Positions 28,085 to 28,458 of a DNA stretch of 64,000 nucleotides are shown here, piece after piece. A program made the position numbers and the translations under genes. The notes beneath the pieces were generated by a model that saw only the letters and a program-made list of their open reading frames with translations, did not search any database and was not told the DNA's origin. The stretch comes from Vicinamibacteria bacterium (lineage in GTDB: Bacteria > Acidobacteriota > Vicinamibacteria > Marinacidobacterales > Marinacidobacteraceae): positions 512,001 to 576,000 of the forward strand of contig OY821641.1 of assembly GCA_963555995.3 (NCBI GenBank), in the 5' to 3' direction. Each line of letters opens with the position of its first letter. The first letter of the stretch is position 1.

Positions 28085-28458
28085 GAGCTCCTGTCACTAA
28101 TGGCATCTCGCGGGGGGAGCTACCGTCACTAACGGCATCTCGCAGGGGGAGCTACCGTCACTAACGGCGTCTCACGGGGTAGAGCTACCGTCACTAACGG
28201 CATCTCGCGGGGGGAGCTACCGTCACTAACGGCATCTCGCAGGGGGAGCTACCGTCACTAACGGCATCTCGCGGGGGGAGCTATCGTCATTAGCGGCATC
28301 TCGCGGGGTGGAGCTACCGTCACTAACGGCATCTCGCAGGGGAAGCTACCGTCACTAACGGCATTTCGCAGGGGGGGAGCTACCGTCATTAGCGGCATCT
28401 CGCGGAGGGAGCTACCGTCACTAACGGCATCTGCGGGGGTGGAGCTACCGTCATTAGC
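28085..28458. repeat. Tandem array of 11 full + 1 partial 32-34-bp units, consensus GAGCTACCGTCACTAACGGCATCTCGC(A/G)GGGG
   Basis: Unit starts at 28085, 28117, 28149, 28182, 28214, 28246, 28278, 28311, 28343, 28377, 28409 and 28442; each unit is an imperfect inverted repeat followed by a G-run. Confidence 0.97.

Follow-up and report, generated by a model that had tools for sequence, protein, structure and literature searches.

Array and neighbouring genes

The window, by which the whole stretch of 64,000 nucleotides analysed here is meant, carries a tandem repeat array between a conserved membrane gene and a restriction-modification (R-M) gene. The features of the locus, in window coordinates, are as follows.

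26950..28038, minus strand: conserved membrane gene, 362 aa; the array starts 47 bp upstream
28085..28458, plus strand: family-A phased array of 12 boxes, period 32-34 bp, variable spacers
28454..28500, plus strand: MITE left end with TTAG target, truncating the last unit; right limit approximate
28540..28700, no strand assigned: putative REP-like double hairpin, very high copy, outside the array family
28731..31709, minus strand: Type IIG-like R-M gene, 992 aa; a neighbour, not a partner
31749..32000, minus strand: DUF5131 gene relic, of which 31765-31966 is common to relative G014 at the same site
32321..32812, minus strand: histidine-phosphatase gene, marking the far edge of a 4.2-kb insert

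The array is carried on a 3.8-Mb contig. TRF run on the window reported positions 28085-28453 with a period of 32 and 11.4 copies (score 560), and 12 boxes with spacings of 32-34 were counted at 28086-28456. Together with stop codons in all six frames over 28041-28500, this upholds the description of a non-coding array of ~32-bp units given in an earlier note on this DNA. The position given there also stands (273 bp below the Type IIG-like gene and 47 bp above the membrane gene); the label 'ykvI-like' for the latter comes from that note, and the 362-aa product is without a Pfam or NCBIfam match. Both array junctions were unchanged in contigs of four runs, all from one study which may include the source sample, and none of these contigs spans the whole array.

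As previously reported, the array lacks unique spacers, those within it being near-identical. Neither unique spacers of the CRISPR or TIGR type nor an effector gene of that kind beside the array was found, and an Rfam scan of the array gave nothing near gathering level (best E 2.6); a CRISPR/TIGR-type guide array is ruled out by these results. A CRISPR array with a 61-bp period does exist in the same genome (designated G000; its chromosome contig is C1) at G000:C1:1462147-1465895 and is unrelated to the phased arrays. A sigma-70 promoter scan returned no promoter-like site. The array flanks within 400 bp reached a maximum AT content of 0.45 in 40 nt with 0 DnaA-like boxes, compared to 0.65 and 6 DnaA-like boxes near dnaA.

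Conservation of a directional box

Six family-A arrays are present in G000, at C1 408, 540, 1102, 2320, 2924 and 3196 kb. They are built on a directional 14-bp box with the consensus AGCT(A/C)(C/T)(C/T)GTCA(C/T)TA, and all 67 exact A boxes in G000 fall inside these six arrays (reversed control, 0). Of the 14 box positions, 11 were constant at 0.96-1.00 and three varied between two letters in 71 units, compared to 0.35-0.87 for spacer positions over the same units. Diversity within the array of the window was 0.015 in the box versus 0.18 in the spacer, and between the four A arrays without an adjacent cognate gene it was 0.011 versus 0.40, in a test for which the box was defined from the same data and units were anchored with up to 3 mismatches. 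The array is not an ordinary minisatellite.

The earlier note had taken each unit to be a hairpin. When its proposed 10 pairs were scored across the six family-A arrays, Watson-Crick pairing was seen in 68% of cells here and in 33-43% in three of the six, so that the hairpin does not hold up as the meaningful unit. Folding of the plus strand was no better than that of shuffles (z 0.14); the minus strand beat shuffles (z -6.6), mostly through pairing between neighbouring units. G-runs, on which a quadruplex had been suggested, number 11 here, but 2 and 0 in the two arrays beside cognate genes, and the right arm on which a hairpin RNA would depend is unconserved among family-A arrays; the hairpin RNA and quadruplex readings are weakened by this lack of conservation. 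As the box is constant while spacers and hairpin pairing vary, the conserved feature is the one-directional 14-bp box and not the hairpin, which is a property of some spacers.

The local MITE had been assigned the target CTAA/TTAG, which proved too narrow: 114 MITE ends (TTAA 38, CTAG 20, CTAA 14 and TTAG 8, among others) give YTAR. At the array itself a MITE end does interrupt the last unit, at a TTAG, and the same end is found at this spacer in relatives G004 and G007.

Arrays across the chromosome and in relatives

Sister families B, C, E and F, as well as an array at 114 kb, were identified in G000 by TRF and a k-mer chain search. Across the families, spacings of 21, 32-33, 64-66, 75 and 97 bp correspond to 2, 3, 6, 7 and 9 helix turns. 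G000 holds at least 20 arrays of all families; 20 entered the statistics, smaller arrays being left out. Their positions relative to dnaA range from -1835 to +1586 kb, and no origin, terminus or leading-strand bias was seen among the 20 (12 leading, 8 lagging). The 114-kb array (G000:C1:114452-114794) has 11 units of 32 bp, and its box is without a matching winged-helix paralog in the assembly.

Arrays have been gained without cargo genes at two G000 sites, one measuring 498 bp where four relatives have 18-19 bp and the other 678 bp where most relatives have about 111 bp. A spacer flanked by genes for an S9 peptidase and an OPT transporter (loci L209-L218, L191 and L193) holds A arrays in three species, H arrays in two, K arrays in two and no array in five; ahead of the K array of G003 lies an H remnant. 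In at least 7 relatives' loci (L161-L165, L185 and L187) arrays are interrupted by elements which we take to be IS21-like, and at L185 such an element separates arrays that differ in type. A constant arrangement of array and adjacent gene start was considered and rejected, as only about half of the relatives' loci fitted it by eye. No A box pair was found in the viral contigs searched.

History of the site and association with R-M genes

In 13 of 14 relatives the histidine-phosphatase gene directly adjoins the membrane gene, and the array and the R-M gene are both absent from the spacer above the membrane gene in all 14. This spacer measures 50-270 bp in 13 relatives; the fourteenth, G014, has the DUF5131 relic. 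A TAT(C/T)CT hexamer is present in 14/14 relatives where G000 has the array. At 28039-28084 of the window this -10-like sequence above the membrane gene has been lost in G000, and expression of the membrane gene may rely on transcripts that run through the array. Elsewhere in the window, a single E-variant-like box lies at 28709-28728, inside an inverted repeat that directly follows the stop codon of the R-M gene, and 2.5 copies of a 33-bp repeat lie at 37366-37447, immediately before a gene for an AAA_14/DUF4143 ATPase. Further ATPase and Fic genes of the genome are likewise preceded by short phased repeats resembling these (C1 1224.7, 2969.7 and 3190.8 kb).

The Type IIG-like gene gave weak PADLOC IIG/MTase matches (E about 2e-5). 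An R-M gene was found within 500 bp of 6/20 G000 arrays versus 18/728 long spacers, and of 6/385 REP-bearing spacers; two of the six array-adjacent R-M genes were added by hand, and without them the figure is 4/20 (p 0.002). Within 10 kb the proportions were 14/20 versus 120/728, and 5/6 for arrays adjacent to one of the paralogs described below. At 16 homologous R-M loci no downstream array was present (0/16), and the array was accordingly rejected as part of a Type IIG R-M system. Among the relatives' arrays listed, 3 of 52 flanking genes matched PADLOC and 0 were R-M genes. The proximity of arrays to R-M genes is thus statistically real in G000 and is lacking among those arrays of relatives that were examined; hotspots are common to arrays and defence genes, which do not form one unit.

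These results also bear on the functions first suggested for the array, namely a hairpin RNA, a quadruplex element or a decoy for the adjacent R-M enzyme. We consider them highly improbable, for the better-than-shuffled folding of the minus strand and the R-M genes abutting 6/20 arrays in G000 are set against an unconserved right arm and unconserved G-runs, an array without an Rfam match at gathering level or a promoter-like site, and the count of 0/16 at R-M homologs. The further suggestion of a phased protein-binding array is supported, with the amendment that the binder is likely to be a winged-helix protein encoded elsewhere and not the R-M enzyme.

A family of winged-helix paralogs

Five arrays were first seen beside related unnamed genes, and a sixth gene was recovered via tblastn. 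G000 thus has six paralogs, each beside an array (two of family A and one each of B, C, E and F), and exactly six domains of this kind were found when the chromosome was searched with an HMM. The A-type genes are at G000:C1:2924327-2925367 and 3194531-3195571. In the AlphaFold model two short helices and a long helical hairpin are joined by a Pro-rich linker, which is disordered, to a winged helix modelled at pLDDT above 90. The best Foldseek match of the winged helix was the Fic protein 4RGL (E 0.006, rmsd 2.0), below the significance line, and Pfam Fic-like_C (PF21247) scored 17.7-19.6 bits in 3/5 paralogs against a cut-off of 27 bits; a winged-helix profile search reaches proteins above that cut-off. 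No NCBIfam match to a Rep-family initiator was obtained for the paralogs, the weak Fic-like_C matches being the only ones.

The N-terminus is amphipathic, Trp-rich and cationic in all 21 sequences (hydrophobic moment 0.59-0.90, net charge +10 to +21), none of which reaches transmembrane-level hydrophobicity. Its model is weak (pTM 0.35, no significant fold match); fold and PDB searches returned generic coiled hairpins alone and Pfam none.

The protein was found in 16/16 genus genomes and 21/28 family genomes, with 1-8 paralogs per genome. Since it is missing from 7/28 family genomes, several of them near-complete, it does not belong to the core machinery. The N-terminal domain was present in 18/26 family genomes and 0/174 other genomes of the class sample, and the named relatives of the protein are Acidobacteriota MAGs; its distribution is limited to one family of the Acidobacteriota. 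Related proteins carry the winged helix as a fusion, after AlbA_2/Schlafen-HATPase or Fic domains.

This last arrangement raises the possibility of a guard-type defence, in which a membrane-damaging N-terminal effector would be parked on the arrays and freed when a phage degrades or displaces host DNA, whereupon the cell is killed. The N-terminal slot could then be an effector slot because relatives carry AlbA_2/Schlafen-HATPase or Fic domains there, and the many fast-changing paralogs, their patchy presence and the 14/20 arrays within 10 kb of an R-M gene (including 5/6 of those beside a paralog) would be in keeping with it. We nevertheless judge this explanation unlikely: five paralogs scanned with PADLOC gave no match, PADLOC matches were obtained for 3/52 genes flanking the relatives' arrays listed, the viral contigs lack an A box pair, and a transmembrane segment is absent from the N-terminus.

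Correspondence of box type and paralog type

A phased chain was found near 63 of 75 domain hits. After removal of fragments and duplicates, 56 of 66 domains were near at least three copies of a box, the box types having been drawn by hand from these loci (type R being loose). On a tree of the 30 loci with both domains, 15 box types required 14 changes, which is the minimum, while 200 shuffles required 21 or more. On the N-terminal tree the number of changes was also 14, no different from the winged-helix tree; this therefore indicates co-inheritance at least, and linkage alone explains adjacent arrays. The match of box type to tree is not proof of binding.

The evidence from whole genomes and from locus L270 does not rest on linkage. 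In six near-complete genomes scored for seven types with patterns of one to three boxes, 40/42 cells agreed. Arrays away from the gene were seen in at least 16 of 19 cells with the paralog (2 being without) and in 2 of 23 cells lacking it; the Fisher value of 8e-7 is overstated because kin share types. E arrays, for example, occur at 8 loci in G020, where the E paralog is present, and not in G018, G024, G026 or G027. At L270, an unrelated gene of AlbA/HATPase type spells the H box three times at a 21-bp period inside its own linker, and its helix resembles the H type; this evidence consists of one intact case, two broken relatives and two loci with other repeats. The AlbA_2-HATPase_c_4 proteins (P0116-P0194) have the same tail, with 7-residue (21-bp) linker repeats before the winged helix, and these repeats may be the winged helix's own binding sites.

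Several loci depart from a simple pairing. No cognate was detected for K arrays in G009, a weak E in G004 and the 114-kb array of G000; the same applies, among fragmented MAGs, to A in G007 and G015, H in G010 and G012, and K in G003 and G005. Types B and B2 have different boxes beside near-identical helices, and L134 adjoins boxes of other types. In G005 and G012 (L159 and L160) an identical A-type winged-helix remnant is found with no A boxes. Taken from sequence comparison, the data make it very probable that each paralog reads its own box type.

It was also considered whether a paralog merely controls itself via the adjacent array, the distant copies spreading as a nearly neutral satellite without benefit. 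The absence of arrays at the same site in most relatives (14/14 here), their interruption by the presumed IS21-like elements and MITEs, the persistence of some arrays without a detected cognate and the operator-like intragenic boxes of L270 would all suit such a satellite. Distant arrays, however, keep their boxes conserved relative to spacers and their period in helical phase, the array type at one spacer (A, H or K) depends on the species, and G005 and G012 have the gene remnant alone and no A boxes; this explanation therefore appears quite unlikely.

Proposed docking of arrays at the membrane

The reading that we tentatively prefer, at slightly short of even confidence, is that the array is a docking platform for a trans-encoded, predicted membrane-binding winged-helix tether. 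The boxes lie on one helix face and are conserved while the spacers drift, which is the part directly observed. The C-terminal winged helix of the A-type paralog would read the A box, with the other paralogs reading their own. The cationic Trp-rich amphipathic helices would then attach to the inner face of the membrane and the coiled hairpins would self-associate, so that a loaded array would become a multivalent anchor, connected through flexible linkers of 100 residues; if box reading holds, such attachment and self-association are, from the predicted structure, somewhat more probable than their absence. Commitment to a membrane tether is made because the tethers RicO and RocS need several helices for binding and a 12-box array would supply that number. 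A unit would next be copied into a new spacer and expanded, so that each species builds its own anchor set, a step partly shown by the array gains above. Finally, and speculatively, arrays gathered in one place would undergo recombination and acquire IS elements as well as defence genes.

Extended further, the paralogs, descended from a self-binding tail of Fic/Schlafen type, with one DNA code apiece, would write and maintain phased arrays round the chromosome and gather them at the membrane, anchoring the chromosome and providing landing pads for defence genes and IS elements; this wider scheme we regard as possible but doubtful.

A third explanation dispenses with the membrane (or replaces it by a storage granule surface) and has the coiled hairpin bridge distant arrays into loops, in the manner of Rok. 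Dispersed box clusters, the sequence of oligomerisation-type hairpin, linker and DNA-binding head, the meeting of arrays of different types at one site (L185), and the long-range interaction of Rok clusters (PMC11841835) are compatible with loop anchors. We hold them very unlikely, as the conserved Trp/Arg amphipathic segment would suit a lipid surface better than a coiled coil.

An orphan repeat has become one half of a candidate protein-DNA pair. No description of the array family, and no DNA target of a PF21247-like winged helix, was found in the open-access literature. The about 15-19 natural helix/box pairs would amount to a recognition code for this widespread winged helix, and they point to the odd 7-residue repeats in the linkers of Fic and AlbA_2-HATPase proteins as probable winged-helix binding sites. 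If the tether reading is true, several orthogonal, fast-evolving satellite-and-reader pairs would organise an Acidobacteriota chromosome, and such pairs could be used as orthogonal DNA-labelling or tethering tools.

Comparison with known systems

RicO of Staphylococcus aureus (bioRxiv 10.64898/2026.03.06.710092) tethers DNA to the membrane through a DNA-binding domain, a coiled coil and an amphipathic helix, and RocS of Streptococcus pneumoniae (bioRxiv 10.1101/2024.07.25.605149) is a membrane tether of the same three parts. Compared by architecture, the paralogs are predicted to combine these parts in one protein and, like RicO, to use specific chromosomal sites. They differ from both in their reversed domain order, their probably Fic-like_C-related head, their 1-8 paralogs with different boxes and their patchy presence, and, unlike the nine single origin-proximal ricS sites of RicO, their tandem phased arrays lie all round the chromosome.

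Plasmid iterons are direct repeats in phase to which winged-helix Rep proteins bind cooperatively (PMC4980987). The arrays share with them same-direction direct repeats in helical phase and a winged-helix candidate reader, and differ in being chromosomal, at many loci and in 10-35 copies; an iteron replication origin was rejected, there being no AT-rich unwinding element, DnaA box cluster or Rep family match. Rok of Bacillus subtilis (PMC11841835) is one protein that prefers AT-rich DNA. It resembles the present system in its clustered sites at dispersed loci and in an N-terminal self-association region (predicted here), linker and C-terminal DNA-binding domain, whereas the long specific boxes in exact phase and the many paralogs are unlike Rok.

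The Fic and AlbA_2-HATPase_c_4 proteins bearing Fic-like_C (PF21247; PDB 4RGL) have a probably homologous winged helix, and their 7-residue (21-bp) linker repeats spell the H box in L270; in the paralogs the enzyme domains are replaced by a new N-terminus and the boxes are dispersed outside the gene. REP/BIME elements likewise form dispersed intergenic clusters with lineage-specific gain. Membership of that class was rejected, as a conserved palindromic stem is absent (pairing 0.33-0.43 in three of six arrays), and the arrays differ in their non-palindromic box in fixed phase, in numbering about 20 loci and in that each type is tied to a winged-helix gene. The system lies outside CRISPR, iteron origins, REP and RicO and, by analogy, would work like a multiplexed iteron/RicO hybrid.
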